From Candidatus Chisholmbacteria bacterium RIFCSPHIGHO2_01_FULL_52_32 (GTDB lineage: Bacteria; Patescibacteriota; Microgenomatia; UBA1400; Chisholmbacteraceae), in the NCBI GenBank assembly GCA_001816585.1, contig MHCJ01000003.1:82100-146099 (forward strand): a stretch of DNA of 64,000 nt, given 5' to 3'. Below the pieces are notes generated by a model. The model was not told where the DNA came from, made no database searches, and worked only from the letters and a program-made list of their open reading frames with translations. Made by a program: the position numbers and the translations under genes. Position 1 is the stretch's first letter. Each line of letters begins with the position of its first letter. Positions 2,368-7,329 of the stretch are shown one piece after another.

Positions 2368-3759
2368 TTGACGATGAGATTTACATACACTGAATGTATG
2401 GAGAAAGGGAGGTTTTCCGATTTCTTTGCCCGTGAGGATGTGATGGTGGTTTTAACCAGCTCACCTGCGGGGCTGGGACATGTACGGGTCACGGAAGCGC
2501 TGCGCGGGGGGTTGGAGGAAGGGGTGCGGGTGGAGGTGTTGGGACTTGAGGATCAGTCGGCTCAAGGGTTGCATCGGGCGGCAAGCCGAAACGTGATTTT
2601 GCGGGCAGTTATGGAGTTCGTTCAGAACAACCCATTGGTTGAGGAGAGTTTTTCAGAGCTGTATCGGGAGCGGCTGCGAAGAAAAGGCAAGGAAGCCTAC
2701 CATCGGCTGGTTGAGCTGGTCAAAAGACGACGGCCAAAACCCAAAGTGCTGTTGATTGTTTCCACCCATTTCGGTCTAGGATACCAGATAGCTGCGATCA
2801 AAAATAGGCTTGCCGAGGAGTTTAAACTGTGCGTGGTTTTGGCAGTGGTAGTGACCGACGATTCGCCGCAGAAGGTGTGGGGAGTGGTCGGTGCGGATTT
2901 TCTGTTTGTTCCAAGTCTAACCACAAAAGAATCTCTGGAAAGATACATGATGAGAATTACCAGAATTGTGCCGGAGGTGTTTGTAGTGCCGTATCCGGTT
3001 TCCGCAGATTTCTGTCAGCCTTTAACAAACAAAGCGTTTGCCGATCGGAAGTTGCAAGTCAATCCCCGGTTCAAAGAGCCGATGAAGATCATGATTCCAA
3101 TATCCGGTGCAGCCGTCCAATTGAACTATATTGAGGAAATGATTACTACATTAGAAAAGGAGAGGATTGCCGACATAACCGTTGTCTCTAGGGAATCAGA
3201 CTACACAAAACGGTTTTTGTCATGGTGCGGAGAGAGAAAATCGGTACGGGTGGTCGCGGAGATACAGGACCGGGATGTCGTCGCCGGCTATGAGAAGGAG
3301 TATGCCAACTCGGTATTCGGAGTCGAGATTACCAAACCCTCCGAGCAGGCTTTTAAGGCATTGATTACCCCGAAGCAGCGCGGTGGGGTCATCCTTCTTT
3401 TTTCGAATCCGGTCGGAAGGCAGGAGAATGATAACCTGGCGTTTTTGGTGCGGCACGATCTGTTGCCGTCTCCCGCTGATCGGGAGGTTCTCGGGAGATA
3501 TCTTTCTACCGGCGAGCGGAGGCTTATTGACGCAGCATTTTTAGAACGGGCGCAGCATTGGCGGGGGTTACTCCTCCCGTCTTCGGGAAGGGATGCCGGG
3601 AGGGCAATTTTGAAGCTTAGGCAGTGCGGGGTTTTGTCAGCGATGCTTGATTTTTCAGGGTACATGGACCACCCGGAATTGCGCAGCGATGGTGTCAGGA
3701 GGATTTGGAAGAAACTTGCGACAAGGGTGGGGGAGAAGTGCGGGATAGCAAGTAGCTAA
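2368..3759 (+). CDS. GT-B glycosyltransferase-like protein (MGDG synthase/UgtP-like N-terminus)
   Basis: 463-aa ORF. N-terminal 'VLTSSPAGLGHV' resembles the G-loop of MurG/MGDG-synthase family enzymes. Divergent from the upstream glycosyltransferase. The start may instead be the ATG at 2398. Confidence 0.45.
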   Translation: MTMRFTYTECMEKGRFSDFFAREDVMVVLTSSPAGLGHVRVTEALRGGLEEGVRVEVLGLEDQSAQGLHRAASRNVILRAVMEFVQNNPLVEESFSELYRERLRRKGKEAYHRLVELVKRRRPKPKVLLIVSTHFGLGYQIAAIKNRLAEEFKLCVVLAVVVTDDSPQKVWGVVGADFLFVPSLTTKESLERYMMRITRIVPEVFVVPYPVSADFCQPLTNKAFADRKLQVNPRFKEPMKIMIPISGAAVQLNYIEEMITTLEKERIADITVVSRESDYTKRFLSWCGERKSVRVVAEIQDRDVVAGYEKEYANSVFGVEITKPSEQAFKALITPKQRGGVILLFSNPVGRQENDNLAFLVRHDLLPSPADREVLGRYLSTGERRLIDAAFLERAQHWRGLLLPSSGRDAGRAILKLRQCGVLSAMLDFSGYMDHPELRSDGVRRIWKKLATRVGEKCGIASS

Positions 3760-3880
3760 TGGCTAATGGCTGATAGCTGATAGCAGATAGCATATAGCTA
3801 ATAGCTTATGGCTAATAGCGGATAGCAGATAGCGAGTAGCAAACGGCTGATGGCACATAGCGTTTAGGGTTTAGCGTATA
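3760..3880. repeat. Cryptic tandem array of (A/G)TAGC-type 5-6-mers (tagctaatggctaatggctgatagctgatagcagatagc…)
   Basis: Directly visible. The same family recurs at 15114-15230, 45835-45860 and 61110-61150. Confidence 0.6.
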
Positions 3881-3934: not shown

Positions 3935-5065
3935 CTATGATTTTTGTGCGGCGGAGATGTCCCTGAGGATACGCTGCGGTTCAATCAACGGGGTGACGTG
4001 GAGGCCTTGCTCTTCTTTAAGGAAAACGACCTGGGGATTATCTGAGACTTCTTGCTCGAGTTCGTAACTCCTGGTTAAGCGATCGTTCTTTCCAGCCCAT
4101 ATGACTATTTTTCCTCCCTCTTTTACTTTCATCTGCTGCCAAGACTTTGCTTTTCGACAGACCTTGTCTAACTGAGCGTTGAAGATGGCAGATTTGATTT
4201 TATCCTGATGGGGGAGGTCTGGTGTTTTTCTTCCCCAGACCAACGAATAAGCGGGTAATCTGCCGAGCATTCCGGAGAATCCGCCGATCTCGTAGGCCAG
4301 GCCGGCAGCGAGCTCCATTCTCGATTGATCGACTGAACTGGCTGGGGAGAACAGGACGGCTTGGCTGACACGCTTTTGAAACGCCTGGTCGTTGAGGATC
4401 TCGCTGACGATAGGACCTCCGGTTGAGTCAGCCCAAAGCTCAATTTCTCCTTCTGGTGCAACTTGCCTTAGAGCACATTTGAAGAATGTGACATGGGGTT
4501 CGTAGTTCGGAGATCGGGAGGCCTTGTCGGCAAATTCCGCGGTCGTCCTTCCCAGGCTTGATTCCGGATAGCCAATGACTACAACTTTTCTTCCCATGAA
4601 AGCTAACTCCTGCGCTAGGCCACCCACAGGATCGATATCGGCAGAGATGCTGGGGATGAGATAGATTGGCGGTTTTTTCTCCGTTTCTAGGGTGGTCTGT
4701 GACTCCGGAGGATCGAGGATGAGGAGGCGGCTTGTCTGTGGGCCCAAGTCGGGGAGATTGACGGTGATTTCACCCTGGTTGAGGTAGCGACGGGCAATCT
4801 CGTCGCGGATGTGGGCTTCGGCGATGATGCGCTTGCGACCGTCGGGGTCGGTTTTTGGCAGTTCATAATAGCGGCGGAGAAGATCGGCTCTCACGTTGCG
4901 GTTAAGCAATGAGCGGTTGATCTCTCTGGGCTCTCCGGGGATGCGGCTTGGGTGGGTGGCAGCTCTGACGAGATACCAGAGCCTGTCGAACCGTTCGAGG
5001 AGGTTTCTCTCCGGGACTTCGGTTTCTTGAATGGGTGGATGTAGTTCTCCGTGCGCTTCGTTCAT
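3935..5065 (-). CDS. Alpha/beta-hydrolase-fold protein (hypothetical)
   Basis: The ORF track gives 3935..5206, but its first 47 codons are the reverse translation of tRNA-Trp ('AGPPGFEPG'). The start was therefore moved to Met48 (codon 5063-5065). The body has hydrolase-like composition; function unknown. Confidence 0.5.
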   Translation of the reverse strand: MNEAHGELHPPIQETEVPERNLLERFDRLWYLVRAATHPSRIPGEPREINRSLLNRNVRADLLRRYYELPKTDPDGRKRIIAEAHIRDEIARRYLNQGEITVNLPDLGPQTSRLLILDPPESQTTLETEKKPPIYLIPSISADIDPVGGLAQELAFMGRKVVVIGYPESSLGRTTAEFADKASRSPNYEPHVTFFKCALRQVAPEGEIELWADSTGGPIVSEILNDQAFQKRVSQAVLFSPASSVDQSRMELAAGLAYEIGGFSGMLGRLPAYSLVWGRKTPDLPHQDKIKSAIFNAQLDKVCRKAKSWQQMKVKEGGKIVIWAGKNDRLTRSYELEQEVSDNPQVVFLKEEQGLHVTPLIEPQRILRDISAAQKS

Positions 5066-5112
5066 GGAGTTTTCTTGGACATAGTATACATCTTGGGGTA
5101 AAATACAGGCAG

Positions 5113-5184
5113 AGGGCCATGATGTTAACGGCAGCATGGCGGTCTCCAAAACCGCTCGTCCAGGTTCGAATCCTGGTGGCCCTG
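5113..5184 (+). tRNA. trnW: tRNA-Trp (anticodon CCA)
   Basis: 72-nt cloverleaf folded by hand. Acceptor stem AGGGCCA/TGGCCCT. D-stem ATGT/GCAT with loop TAACGGCA. Anticodon stem GCGGT/ACCGC with loop CTCCAAA (anticodon CCA). T-arm CCAGG-TTCGAAT-CCTGG. Discriminator G. CCA is not encoded. Confidence 0.85.
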
Positions 5185-5267
5185 CAATGACTAGGTCATG
5201 AAACATTTGAGACTCTCAGCAGTCTCATGCCAGCTGATTTCCATTGCATTCGCTATCGAGCTCCCAA

Positions 5268-5303
5268 ATACTCATGGAGCGTGTATCGTGCGCTCATGAG
5301 TAT
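5268..5303 (+). other. Perfect 13-bp-stem hairpin (ATACTCATGGAGCG-tgtatcgtg-CGCTCATGAGTAT) 84 nt downstream of tRNA-Trp
   Basis: Inverted repeat seen directly. It is followed by a second GC-rich imperfect stem at 5304-5340 and has no T-run. It may be a processing or termination structure, or part of a small RNA. Confidence 0.4.
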
Positions 5304-5368
5304 ACTGGAGACCTCGCTCGGGTTCGGAGCCTCCGAGAGCTGCAAAAAGCATCTTGATGGAGTAAAAT

Positions 5369-5632
5369 ATGGTTATGAAGAATTGGAATACTGACGTTTC
5401 TCGTTTCAAATCACCTCAGCATAAGCGCCTTTGGGAACTCTCTCAGCTTATCAATTATGGCCTCGAAGGGCGTAAACTCAACAAACGCGAACTTGCTATA
5501 AATTGGGCCGATTTGAAACCACTGCTCGATCCTGAACGGGCAAGAATGTTAGAATTTATCCTATGGAGAAAACTGTACTCACTCCCAACCAACGCGCGGT
5601 TCTGGAATCTCTCGCCCAAGAAAAATACATAA
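5369..5632 (+). CDS. Small ORF upstream of and overlapping the AbiEii-like gene (candidate cognate antitoxin, truncated AbiEi-like?)
   Basis: 87-aa ORF ending 70 nt inside the toxin gene in another frame. The assignment is purely positional; no recognisable domain. Confidence 0.3.
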   Translation: MVMKNWNTDVSRFKSPQHKRLWELSQLINYGLEGRKLNKRELAINWADLKPLLDPERARMLEFILWRKLYSLPTNARFWNLSPKKNT

Positions 5633-6225
5633 CCGAAACCTTCTTCTTGTCCGGAGGAACTGCCCTTTCTGCATTTTATTTTAAACACAGAATCTCCGAA
5701 GACTTCGATCTTTTTTCCGAAAAGGTATACGAAGCTAAAAAAGTTGCTATCTGGGTGCAAAAGGCCGCAAAAAATCTCAAGGTTCAGAAAGCTGAACAAC
5801 AAAAACTCACTGGTCAGGATGTCTATTACTTCTCTTTTGGCAAAAACGACTTTGTTAAAGTAGATTTCTCGTATTTTCCGTTTCCTCACCTGGGAGAATT
5901 TACGAAATATCAAAAGCTGAGGATTTCGAGCCTTGAAGACCTTGCCGTGAACAAACTTCAGGCTATAGTAACGAGAAAAAGATCTAGAGATTACGTAGAT
6001 TTATACCTGTGTTTACGAACTCTCAAATGGTCTTCAGAAGATATGCAGAAATACTACAGGCTCAAGTTCGATATGCACGTCAGTTTTGAGCAACTTGCTA
6101 CTTCGTTTACTAACGTTGTTGATGCACACGACGCGCCAAAATTCTTGGGAAAGACATCCTGGGAGGTCGTGAGAAAATATTTTCTTTCCTTAGCCCAGGA
6201 ATTAAAAAGCAAAATTATTGAATGA
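5563..6225 (+). CDS. AbiEii/DUF1814-family nucleotidyltransferase (type IV TA toxin-like)
   Basis: 220 aa. Motif '…FFLSGGTALSAFYFKHRISEDFDLF…' matches the GGTAL…HR.SEDxD signature of AbiEii/AbiGii nucleotidyltransferases. Confidence 0.65.
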   Translation: MEKTVLTPNQRAVLESLAQEKYITETFFLSGGTALSAFYFKHRISEDFDLFSEKVYEAKKVAIWVQKAAKNLKVQKAEQQKLTGQDVYYFSFGKNDFVKVDFSYFPFPHLGEFTKYQKLRISSLEDLAVNKLQAIVTRKRSRDYVDLYLCLRTLKWSSEDMQKYYRLKFDMHVSFEQLATSFTNVVDAHDAPKFLGKTSWEVVRKYFLSLAQELKSKIIE

Positions 6226-6248
6226 TCTTGAAAATTGTGATGTTCAGG

Positions 6249-6278
6249 TAGGTTCGAACGTCGTCCATCAGGTGCTGC
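6249..6278. repeat. 30-bp direct repeat, copy 1 (taggttcgaacgtcgtccatcaggtgctgc)
   Basis: Identical 30-mer at 6684-6713. The two copies bracket ORF 6307..6681 exactly. Confidence 0.7.
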
Positions 6279-6306
6279 TATATAGCCTAAGTGATATACT
6301 TAATTT

Positions 6307-6681
6307 GTGAAGAGAAAATACCTAATTTTCTTTATAGTTCTAATCGCCTTTTTCCTCTTACTAATATTTAGACAAGGGTACTATCCCTGGGAACATATAA
6401 GCTGTATTTTTTCCAGAGGAGACTACCAGGGATTAGCAGGTCCGCTTGGCTCTCCCCCGCTCGGATTTAAATGCGTCCACACTTTTAGCGATGCAGGTAA
6501 AAAATGCTTCAGCAACAATGATTGTCAGGGAAATTGTCTGGTCACCAAAGATACAATTGTAGAAAAAACTGGACTACTAAAGTCCAAGGTCACTGGTGGA
6601 TTTGGAGCCTGCGAGGCAAACGATTTAAGATACCCATCCTATCCAGGTGATTTTGAAAATCCTCAAGGCTGGATAATCTAA
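6307..6681 (+). CDS. Small secreted/membrane-anchored Cys-rich protein (hypothetical), low-GC cassette
   Basis: 124 aa with an N-terminal hydrophobic segment and six Cys in the mature part. AT-rich relative to surroundings. Flanked by perfect 30-bp direct repeats. Confidence 0.5.
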   Translation: MKRKYLIFFIVLIAFFLLLIFRQGYYPWEHISCIFSRGDYQGLAGPLGSPPLGFKCVHTFSDAGKKCFSNNDCQGNCLVTKDTIVEKTGLLKSKVTGGFGACEANDLRYPSYPGDFENPQGWII

Positions 6682-6683
6682 AA

Positions 6684-6713
6684 TAGGTTCGAACGTCGTC
6701 CATCAGGTGCTGC
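6684..6713. repeat. 30-bp direct repeat, copy 2
   Basis: Identical to 6249-6278. Confidence 0.7.
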
Positions 6714-7035
6714 AACAGTCTTCTGGGATGTAACCTCTATCCTTCGACTACGCTCCCTTCGGCATTGCTCAGGGCAAGAAAGACCGGTTGGGGTTCGACT
6801 TGTGGTGTGCTTGTTGAACCATTCCCTCCGGCCCTGCACTTCGACGCGATTCTCTCGCTCAGTGCGAGGGAGTCGATGCGAAGTATAGCGGAGGGATGAG
6901 AAGTTTACCCTAAGCGAAGTCGAATGGGATTCCCTCCGGCCCTGCAAGGTGCCATTCGATAACTATAACTGGATCTAGCCAGTTGATACGCTTTGACTTC
7001 TTGAAATCCCTCCATAGATAATTTATAGTCAGGTC

Positions 7036-7329
7036 ATGTTAACAAAGACAGATTTAAAAGAAATCAGAAAAATAATAAGGGAAGAGGTTGAAACTGAGTC
7101 TGAAAATAATAAAAGTGAAATTCAGGCAGAAATGAAAATGAACATGATAAGAGTTGTTACGGAAATAAGAGAATTAAGTTCTCGGCTTAAGAATGTAGAA
7201 GTGAAGTTAAACAAAATGCAGAAAGACCTGAAATATTCAGTAAATTTCCTTGACAAATTTGGCTTGAAAATCCAAAGTAGGGTTGAAAGAATCGAAGCAC
7301 ATCTTCGTCTAGAACCCATTTCTTCTTAA
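7036..7329 (+). CDS. Small coiled-coil protein (hypothetical)
   Basis: 97 aa, K/E-rich with heptad-like composition. AT-rich. Confidence 0.4.
   Translation: MLTKTDLKEIRKIIREEVETESENNKSEIQAEMKMNMIRVVTEIRELSSRLKNVEVKLNKMQKDLKYSVNFLDKFGLKIQSRVERIEAHLRLEPISS

Follow-up and report, generated by a model that had tools for sequence, protein, structure and literature searches.

A perfect 30-nt direct repeat brackets a cysteine-rich protein gene behind tRNA-Trp in a Chisholmbacteria genome: candidate att-type sites of an integrase-less mini-cassette

Duplicated attachment (att) sites made of part of a tRNA gene, with units stacking up by successive integration, are the established model for tycheposon islands (bioRxiv 10.1101/2020.12.28.424599), and cis-mobilizable elements (CIMEs), which keep attL and attR without genes for integration and transfer, are described together with their accretion (PMC5704250). 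In this work we analyse a stretch of 64,000 nt (the window) from the genome of Candidatus Chisholmbacteria bacterium RIFCSPHIGHO2_01_FULL_52_32, in which a perfect 30-nt direct repeat, here called W30, brackets a single open reading frame (ORF) for a small cysteine-rich (Cys-rich) protein downstream of a tRNA-Trp gene. The host belongs to the Candidate Phyla Radiation (CPR), and to our knowledge almost nothing is known about gene exchange in these tiny uncultivated bacteria. On balance, we regard the two W30 copies as probable att-type sites of a mini-cassette without an integrase of its own, lying in a hotspot linked to the tRNA. The features on which the argument leans are the following (related loci from other genomes and contigs are given by L numbers):

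5113..5185, + strand: tRNA-Trp (CCA), found by ARAGORN and by the Rfam tRNA model (54 bits), with the 3′ end AGGTTCGAATCCTGGTGGCCCTGC; proposed anchor of the hotspot.
5369..6225, + strand: AbiEi-like gene (5369-5632) and AbiEii gene (5563-6225; Pfam AbiEii, 3e-17; PADLOC AbiEii); putative cassette ending with W30 copy 1.
6249..6278, + strand: W30 copy 1, TAGGTTCGAACGTCGTCCATCAGGTGCTGC; L019 and L020 have the same 30-mer.
6279..6683, + strand: body of the putative cassette, i.e., a 28-nt leader, the ORF at 6307-6681 and then 2 nt.
6684..6713, + strand: W30 copy 2, TAGGTTCGAACGTCGTCCATCAGGTGCTGC.
7036..7329, + strand: 97-aa coiled-coil ORF, conserved distal flank of the hotspot, with homologues in Woesebacteria and other CPR bacteria.

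The window holds exactly two copies of W30, both on the + strand and spaced 435 bp apart, as a reading made earlier from the letters alone (the sequence-only reading) had reported, and no third copy was found in its 64 kb with up to three mismatches allowed. Practically none would be expected by chance (0 matches in 100 dinucleotide shuffles), and the identity between the two copies breaks off abruptly at both of their edges. The body between them is 405 bp long and has one ORF, unrelated to mobility, so that body and one site together measure 435 bp. This ORF starts with GTG, encodes 124 aa and lies 28 nt past copy 1 and 2 nt short of copy 2, in agreement with the start 29 nt after the first repeat and the second repeat 3 nt after the stop that were counted before. 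The same two-copy arrangement is present in more than 15 independent contigs (NCBI, JGI, ENA/MEGAHIT and Logan) and is therefore not an artefact of assembly; the Logan contigs, built with k = 31, break precisely at W30, as would be expected of a repeat of length k-1. Every contig spanning the locus has both repeats, three contigs stop in or beside the 30-mer, and one stops a little before copy 2. A sole length variant exists (L039/L048, 2240-2355 and 2730-2752), with a gap of 10 N, a recR-like fragment joined to the Cys-rich ORF at its GTG, and differences in the last 16 nt of this ORF before the 30-mer; it is probably a chimeric scaffold joined via a shared 20-mer.

W30 is not confined to Chisholmbacteria. 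A scan for its central 24 bases, with one genome per species, gave two matches, both of which turned out to be the full 30-mer: one in a Patescibacteria metagenome-assembled genome (MAG; L019) and the other in Candidatus Woesebacteria RIFCSPHIGHO2_01_FULL_39_23 (L020). The flanks of W30 in these two genomes are unrelated to those in the window and to one another. The sequence-only reading had proposed a search for further copies, holding that a 30-mer found nowhere else would speak for a local tandem duplication; letter-identical copies among unrelated neighbours are what the search returned. A scan tolerating mismatches found copies in L020 at 2090 (exact), 2128 (partial), 3397 (one mismatch) and 3766 (seven mismatches), and in L019 at 258 (eight mismatches) and 1463 (exact), all of them on one strand. 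Between them these copies bracket a methyltransferase, a YafQ/RelB toxin-antitoxin (TA) pair with an M23 peptidase, a BrnT/BrnA pair and the coiled-coil ORF, which in L020 has copies of the 30-mer on both sides, and several W30-type copies begin or end 0-2 nt from a stop codon.

A sister variant of the repeat, AAAGTTCGAATACTTTCCATCC[A/G]GGGCTGC, brackets a gene of 248 aa in a Woesebacteria locus (L021-L025), and alignment of the variants reveals two conserved boxes, GTTCGAA and TCCATCNGGNGCTGC, separated by a variable 5-nt spacer. The strict two-box pattern has 11 forward and 0 reverse matches in 196 kb; all 11 lie upstream of or just beside the coiled-coil ORF, and downstream of tRNA-Trp wherever the fetched stretch includes the tRNA. 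Arrays reach up to four sites (in L020 and L008), and some of their units have two to three genes or genes on the opposite strand; the window holds two clear units, the AbiE genes and the Cys-rich ORF. In viral contigs, the 24-mer core, a 22-mer from the conserved region downstream, a degenerate form of the two-box pattern and the Cys-rich family were all without a match, and therefore nothing suggests carriage by phages.

L020 also has a direct repeat of 32-35 nt unrelated to W30, CGTGA..AATTTAGTCCAAATTACCC[C/T]CACCACC, at 1404-1439 and 2836-2868. It brackets a block of 1.43 kb, with the methyltransferase, W30 and YafQ/RelB, just downstream of tRNA-Trp, and its first copy begins 16 nt past the end of this tRNA.

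The tRNA-Trp of the window sits 1.1 kb upstream of the repeats, a link missing from the sequence-only reading, as were the likeness between repeat and tRNA 3′ end and the place of the cassette as one unit of a small array. In nine related loci tRNA-Trp is found upstream of the coiled-coil ORF and on the same strand. The gap between the two is just 115 nt in L027, L028 and L030, where it consists itself of tRNA-Trp-3′-like sequence split by hairpins, and these relatives, with the coiled-coil ORF directly behind the tRNA, look like the empty hotspot. In the window, L020, L023, L026, L031 and L035, 0.5-9 kb of variable genes lie between tRNA-Trp and the coiled-coil ORF, and repeats on the strand of the tRNA, and behind it, are seen in the window as well as in L020, L023 and, with another tRNA, L008. 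Further stretches, some of them tRNA-like, flank the two units of the window:

5320..5343, + strand: possible degenerate site (‘copy 0’), GGGTTCGGAGCCTCCGAGAGCTGC, ahead of the AbiE genes; weak and tentative.
6714..6789, + strand: conserved noncoding spacer, 76 nt between W30 copy 2 and the next tRNA-like site.
6790..6838, + strand: ‘long-form’ site resembling the tRNA-Trp 3′ end, GGGGTTCGAC[..23 nt..]TCCCTCCGGCCCTGCA.
6917..6946, + strand: second fragment resembling the tRNA-Trp 3′ end, AAGTCGAATGGGATTCCCTCCGGCCCTGCA, with GGCCCTGCA in common with the real tRNA end.

When W30 is aligned with the 3′ end of its own tRNA-Trp, as AGGTTCGAA[CGTCG]TCC..GG..CTGC (p ~ 0.008, mononucleotide shuffles), its end coincides with that of the tRNA gene, and its boxes fall on the T-loop (GTTCGAA) and on the 3′ side of the T-stem with the acceptor end (TCCATCNGGNGCTGC). 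The long-form site resembles Woesebacteria tRNA-Trp 3′ ends with p <= 0.0005, and an 18-nt repeat, ATTCCCTCCGGCCCTGCA, at 6821 and 6929, is common to it and to the second fragment. Local alignments of copy 0 gave p = 0.002-0.05 (shuffles) for five of the six tRNA ends compared and p = 0.40 for one tRNA-Trp. As the score of W30 is modest and that of the long-form site clearly tRNA-Trp-like, we hold the origin of W30-type sites from a tRNA 3′ end to be likely, not proven, judging from these alignments. A pseudo-tRNA-Trp fragment of 48 nt, which covers the anticodon arm and all that follows as far as the 3′ end and has a perfect T-arm (GGAGGTTCGAGTCCTCC), is present in L031 (9253-9306; also in L035) 5 nt past the intact tRNA-Trp, and looks like the footprint of an earlier integration or excision.

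Gain and loss of whole units at such repeats can be followed between strains in the Woesebacteria locus, of which the five near-identical variants (L021-L025) differ by entire blocks. L025 and L021 have an AbiEi/AbiEii module followed by a short-form repeat; exactly this block is missing from L022, where a single site joins the left and right contexts within CATCCAGGGCTGC followed by T, placing the junction between presence and absence at the 3′ end of the repeat. The module is homologous to the AbiE genes of the window (33% and 42% aa identity), i.e., to the neighbour of the Cys-rich cassette. L022 has in addition a noncoding unit of 206 nt with repeats of 51 nt that end like tRNA-Trp (..AGTTCACTAGCCCCTGC), absent from L025 (L022 1246-1502 compared with L025 1860-1910), and L023 departs from L025 exactly at this 51-nt repeat, with a different gene or genes upstream of it, on the left.

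The bracketed gene itself has relatives elsewhere. Homologues with 61-63% identity retain its GTG-AAG-AGA-AAA start, six cysteines are invariant in 13 diverse members of the family, and a profile search collected 48 cluster representatives (E <= 1e-3); with its start and cysteines kept in this manner, the ORF is, by its conservation, a real gene, as the sequence-only reading had taken it to be. No match to it was found in Pfam, PHROGs, NCBIfam or PADLOC. Its AlphaFold2 model, built from a 4-sequence alignment, is unusable (predicted local distance difference test score, pLDDT, 46.7), the sole part modelled with confidence being the N-terminus, MKRKYLIFFIVLIAFFLLLIF, a predicted hydrophobic helix that may serve as membrane anchor or signal. 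Homology between the DNAs of the window and L007 covers 6283-6705, i.e., the Cys-rich ORF and the first 22 bases of the downstream repeat: it begins 5 nt past copy 1 and extends into a decayed copy of the downstream 30-mer. In L008, a 63%-identical homologue is enclosed by the last two of a series of four direct repeats that follows a tRNA-Glu gene; these repeats end with GGGTCAC, as does the 3′ end of this tRNA, and the flank behind the second repeat resembles that behind tRNA-Glu. A metagenome scan with the alignment of the Cys-rich protein gave six loci, mostly weak matches, and neither tRNA nor flanking repeats were seen in L014-L018. Another homologue (42% identity; L053, 3725-4289) follows tRNA-Val at a distance of 68 nt. 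On either side of this homologue is a perfect repeat of 15 nt, CACACACCGGGTGTG, which forms a hairpin and is unlike the end of that tRNA.

These findings would come together if a small circular unit, made of the Cys-rich gene and one site (435 bp), had undergone Campbell-type insertion into a site with which the AbiE module already ended, the recombination duplicating this site. The sites would form a family of ~30 nt in which two boxes mimic the tRNA-Trp 3′ end around a variable 5-nt spacer and, always on the strand of the tRNA, they would delimit units of one to three genes stacked from tRNA-Trp to the coiled-coil gene in Microgenomates-group CPR bacteria (Chisholmbacteria, Woesebacteria and a Patescibacteria MAG). 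Since same-strand sites do delimit stacked units, the locus may be read as a tRNA-anchored hotspot of integrase-less mini-cassettes, with TA and Abi modules, peptidases and small secreted proteins as its cargo. We infer that the insertion was site-specific and that the enzyme responsible would be a tyrosine integrase that either acts in trans or has been lost. This account follows the known logic of tRNA-targeted elements, i.e., duplicated att sites, older units driven inward by later integrations, and units, decayed or without integrase, in which both sites are retained.

The sequence-only reading had also supposed site-specific recombination, by way of an integron-like cassette or of a miniature inverted-repeat transposable element (MITE). 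Its general part gains from the bounding of unrelated units by W30 in other genomes, from the sister repeat bounding a module that is present or absent, and from the extent of the L007 homology; its two modes of delivery gain nothing. No IntI or other recombinase domain was found in 57 ORFs of the window and no attC-type hairpin is formed by the repeat, leaving the layout alone as integron-like. Equally, a MITE or another element derived from an insertion sequence would call for terminal inverted repeats and a short target-site duplication; there are no inverted repeats at the unit ends, and the flanking repeats are direct and 30 nt long.

Several observations weigh against the insertion of mini-cassettes at dedicated sites. 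In the Chisholmbacteria population, searched through identical matches to the AbiEii and coiled-coil proteins on either side, the more than 15 contigs all have both repeats: neither an empty site nor a circular junction of the Cys-rich cassette, both of which the sequence-only reading had thought worth looking for, was seen, and no contig differs in its gene content from the AbiE pair to the coiled-coil ORF. A search of 57 ORFs across the 64-kb window found no domain of an integrase, resolvase or transposase, and the Pfam annotations precomputed for the related loci show none near the arrays. The likeness of W30 to tRNA-Trp is modest and needs a 5-nt gap to reach p ~ 0.008, and that of the tRNA-Glu-type repeats of L008 is weaker still (p = 0.06 for the overall alignment). 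Not every Cys-rich homologue lies in such an array, that of L052 having no array context. Finally, unrelated direct repeats of ~30-50 nt also bracket blocks (the 35-mer of L020 and the 51-mer of L022), which fits recombination driven by homology as well as it fits one dedicated site.

This last point is why the most serious of the rival explanations is homologous recombination between repeats without any dedicated recombinase, by loop-out and re-insertion or by a swap after DNA uptake, through a RecA-type process or slippage, with W30 being simply the repeat that has spread furthest. The 32-35-mer around the 1.43-kb block and the 51-mer around the 206-nt unit speak for it, the AbiE junction calls for no more than 14 identical bases, no recombinase gene was found nearby, and the window encodes the transformation protein DprA. 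Against this, W30 keeps its exact 30-nt identity, with sharp edges, in three genomes whose coiled-coil proteins have clearly diverged, which suggests constraint on the site; two conserved boxes around a variable spacer, together with a strand bias of 11 to 0, are typical of a site recognised by a protein; and 30 bases are close to the lower limit for efficient homologous recombination. We think this explanation unlikely, if deserving of serious attention. Somewhat less likely again is that W30 is an element which each gene needs in cis, be it an operator or a signal for RNA processing or stability that mimics a tRNA end. The perfect conservation across genomes and the copies 0-2 nt from stop codons would suit such an element, and in an RNAalifold fold copy 2 is paired to a segment ~100 nt further on, with three compensatory pairs; this covariation, however, comes from two sequences only, copy 1 has no pairing partner downstream, and the 30-mer alone folds no better than shuffles on either strand. 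What tells most against a cis element is that the genes of the units lie on either strand (minus for the TA pairs of L019 and L020) and the orientation of the site is constant throughout, and that whole modules are gained and lost at the repeat, the signature of DNA rearrangement.

Two simpler explanations can be given very little credit. A one-off local duplication in this lineage, by slippage or unequal crossing-over, would leave what is seen in the window, i.e., copies 100% identical, 435 bp apart and without polymorphism in the population; it would not put identical 30-mers, in several copies and beside unrelated genes, into two other genomes, and the gene in between is a distinct one with homologues that are bracketed elsewhere too, so that we see hardly any room for it. 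Lower still, close to nil, is our estimate for an artefact of assembly or scaffolding at a repeat of k-mer length: the length of k-1 for k = 31, the Logan breaks and the chimeric L039 at this very locus could raise the suspicion, which is countered by the agreement of MEGAHIT (k141), JGI and NCBI assemblies from many samples, long contigs of 438 kb and 1.16 Mb among them.

Other candidates were considered and set aside. A CRISPR array would have regular repeats of ~30 nt with spacers of 25-50 nt, whereas the spacing here is 435 bp (369-1307 bp elsewhere) and includes a conserved protein gene, and a DNA uptake sequence would not be limited to two copies in 64 kb. A dif/Xer site is contradicted by the direct orientation of the copies and by the absence of any evident resemblance to the dif consensus. 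As the T-stem cannot pair, W30 is not a true tRNA fragment, and reading the repeats of L008 and the window on the minus strand, as the duplicated 5′ end of a gene, yields only short unsupported ORFs.

The units of the window are set in a low-GC islet (5186-7329; GC 0.417 compared with 0.516 for the window). The sequence-only reading had the AT content of the Cys-rich ORF stand out from its flanks; the GC of this ORF (0.41) is in fact close to that of the AbiE genes upstream (0.406), and only the noncoding stretch at 6714-6946 is GC-rich (0.554). Part of that stretch is shared with another genome: positions 6685-6837 are 76.5% identical to 259-424 of L019, and the GC-rich noncoding DNA at 6714-6837 resembles 288-424 of this Patescibacteria MAG (76% identity), where it lies upstream of the coiled-coil ORF. 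It may be a structured RNA or an arm of an att site; the spacer at 6714-6789 matched no Rfam family, and Rfam scans in gathering and E-value modes found nothing but tRNA-Trp. The coiled-coil ORF has no family match in Pfam, PHROGs, NCBIfam or PADLOC. CPR genomes of the Microgenomates type consistently encode this small protein beside tRNA-Trp; that it acts in recombination, e.g., as a directionality factor, would be pure speculation. On the other side of the tRNA, a 7-nt unit similar to ATAGCTG (reported with a 14-nt period) is repeated in tandem some 19 times at 3745-3877, in the intergenic gap between the ORFs at 2368-3759 and 3935-5071. The ORF at 3935-5206, on the minus strand, is given in some assemblies in a 423-aa form that runs antisense through tRNA-Trp, with ..GPPGFEPGRAVLE.. 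at the N-terminus; the form of 376-378 aa is the plausible gene, without a family match.

The locus suggests that a small store of flexible genes is kept behind tRNA-Trp, made of single-gene cassettes with a 30-nt site identical across genera, and holding defence and TA modules, peptidases and small secreted Cys-rich proteins. A further step would be to see in it an active, tRNA-anchored analogue of the integron in CPR bacteria, where one-gene cassettes, each with a two-box site of ~30 nt shaped like a pseudo-tRNA 3′ end, are inserted, excised and moved between genomes by a recombinase encoded elsewhere. Arrays would thus form behind tRNA-Trp and also, through a site of matching type, behind tRNA-Glu. 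We consider this rather doubtful; the letter-perfect W30 of different genera would then reflect the specificity of the recombinase and an ongoing traffic of cassettes. If the cassettes are mobile in trans, an integron-like system would have evolved from tRNA attachment sites, and the W30 motif would be a handle on flexible genes, and on the recombinase, in CPR metagenomes. If, on the other hand, the repeats are merely scars of old integrations, the locus is a tRNA island of the common kind, if with an unusual host.

Among described systems, the tRNA-targeted islands (Prochlorococcus tycheposons and CIMEs) are like this locus in lying directly 3′ of a tRNA gene, with repeats on its strand that resemble its 3′ end, in their stacked units with defence and TA cargo, in the lack of an integrase from some units that have both sites, and in content that varies between strains (seen here in the Woesebacteria locus). 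As in a CIME, two identical sites enclose here a body, of 405 bp, with one non-mobility ORF. Unlike those islands, the units here measure 0.1-1.4 kb and often have one gene, with no integrase or fragment of one in the arrays examined; the site is a two-box derivative of ~30 nt in which the 5-nt spacer destroys the pairing of the T-arm; one of its variants is letter-identical in three genomes; and the hosts are CPR bacteria.

Integron arrays share with the locus their mostly single-gene units, the site close behind each unit, the stacking in one orientation (if with genes on the opposite strand in some units here), the cargo of TA pairs and small ORFs, and the absence of mobility genes within units. 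There is no IntI, attI or Pc here, however, and the array is anchored at a tRNA gene; unlike attC, W30 is linear, without an imperfect hairpin or the R″ and R′ boxes (RYYYAAC/GTTRRRY). The pdif modules of Acinetobacter plasmids, on which XerC and XerD act, are also similar, in that sites of ~28 bp bound modules of one to a few genes, often TA pairs, with no recombinase inside; pdif sites are inverted and consist of two 11-bp arms and a 6-bp spacer, whereas the W30 copies are direct and have no evident resemblance to dif. The architecture of att repeats in a tRNA island is thus a known one. What sets this locus apart is the tiny size of its units, the absence of integrase remnants, and a site that is a pair of boxes around a spacer rather than a plain copy of the tRNA and yet is letter-perfect across genera; it is the reduction of such an island to integrase-less mini-cassettes, in CPR bacteria, that would be new.

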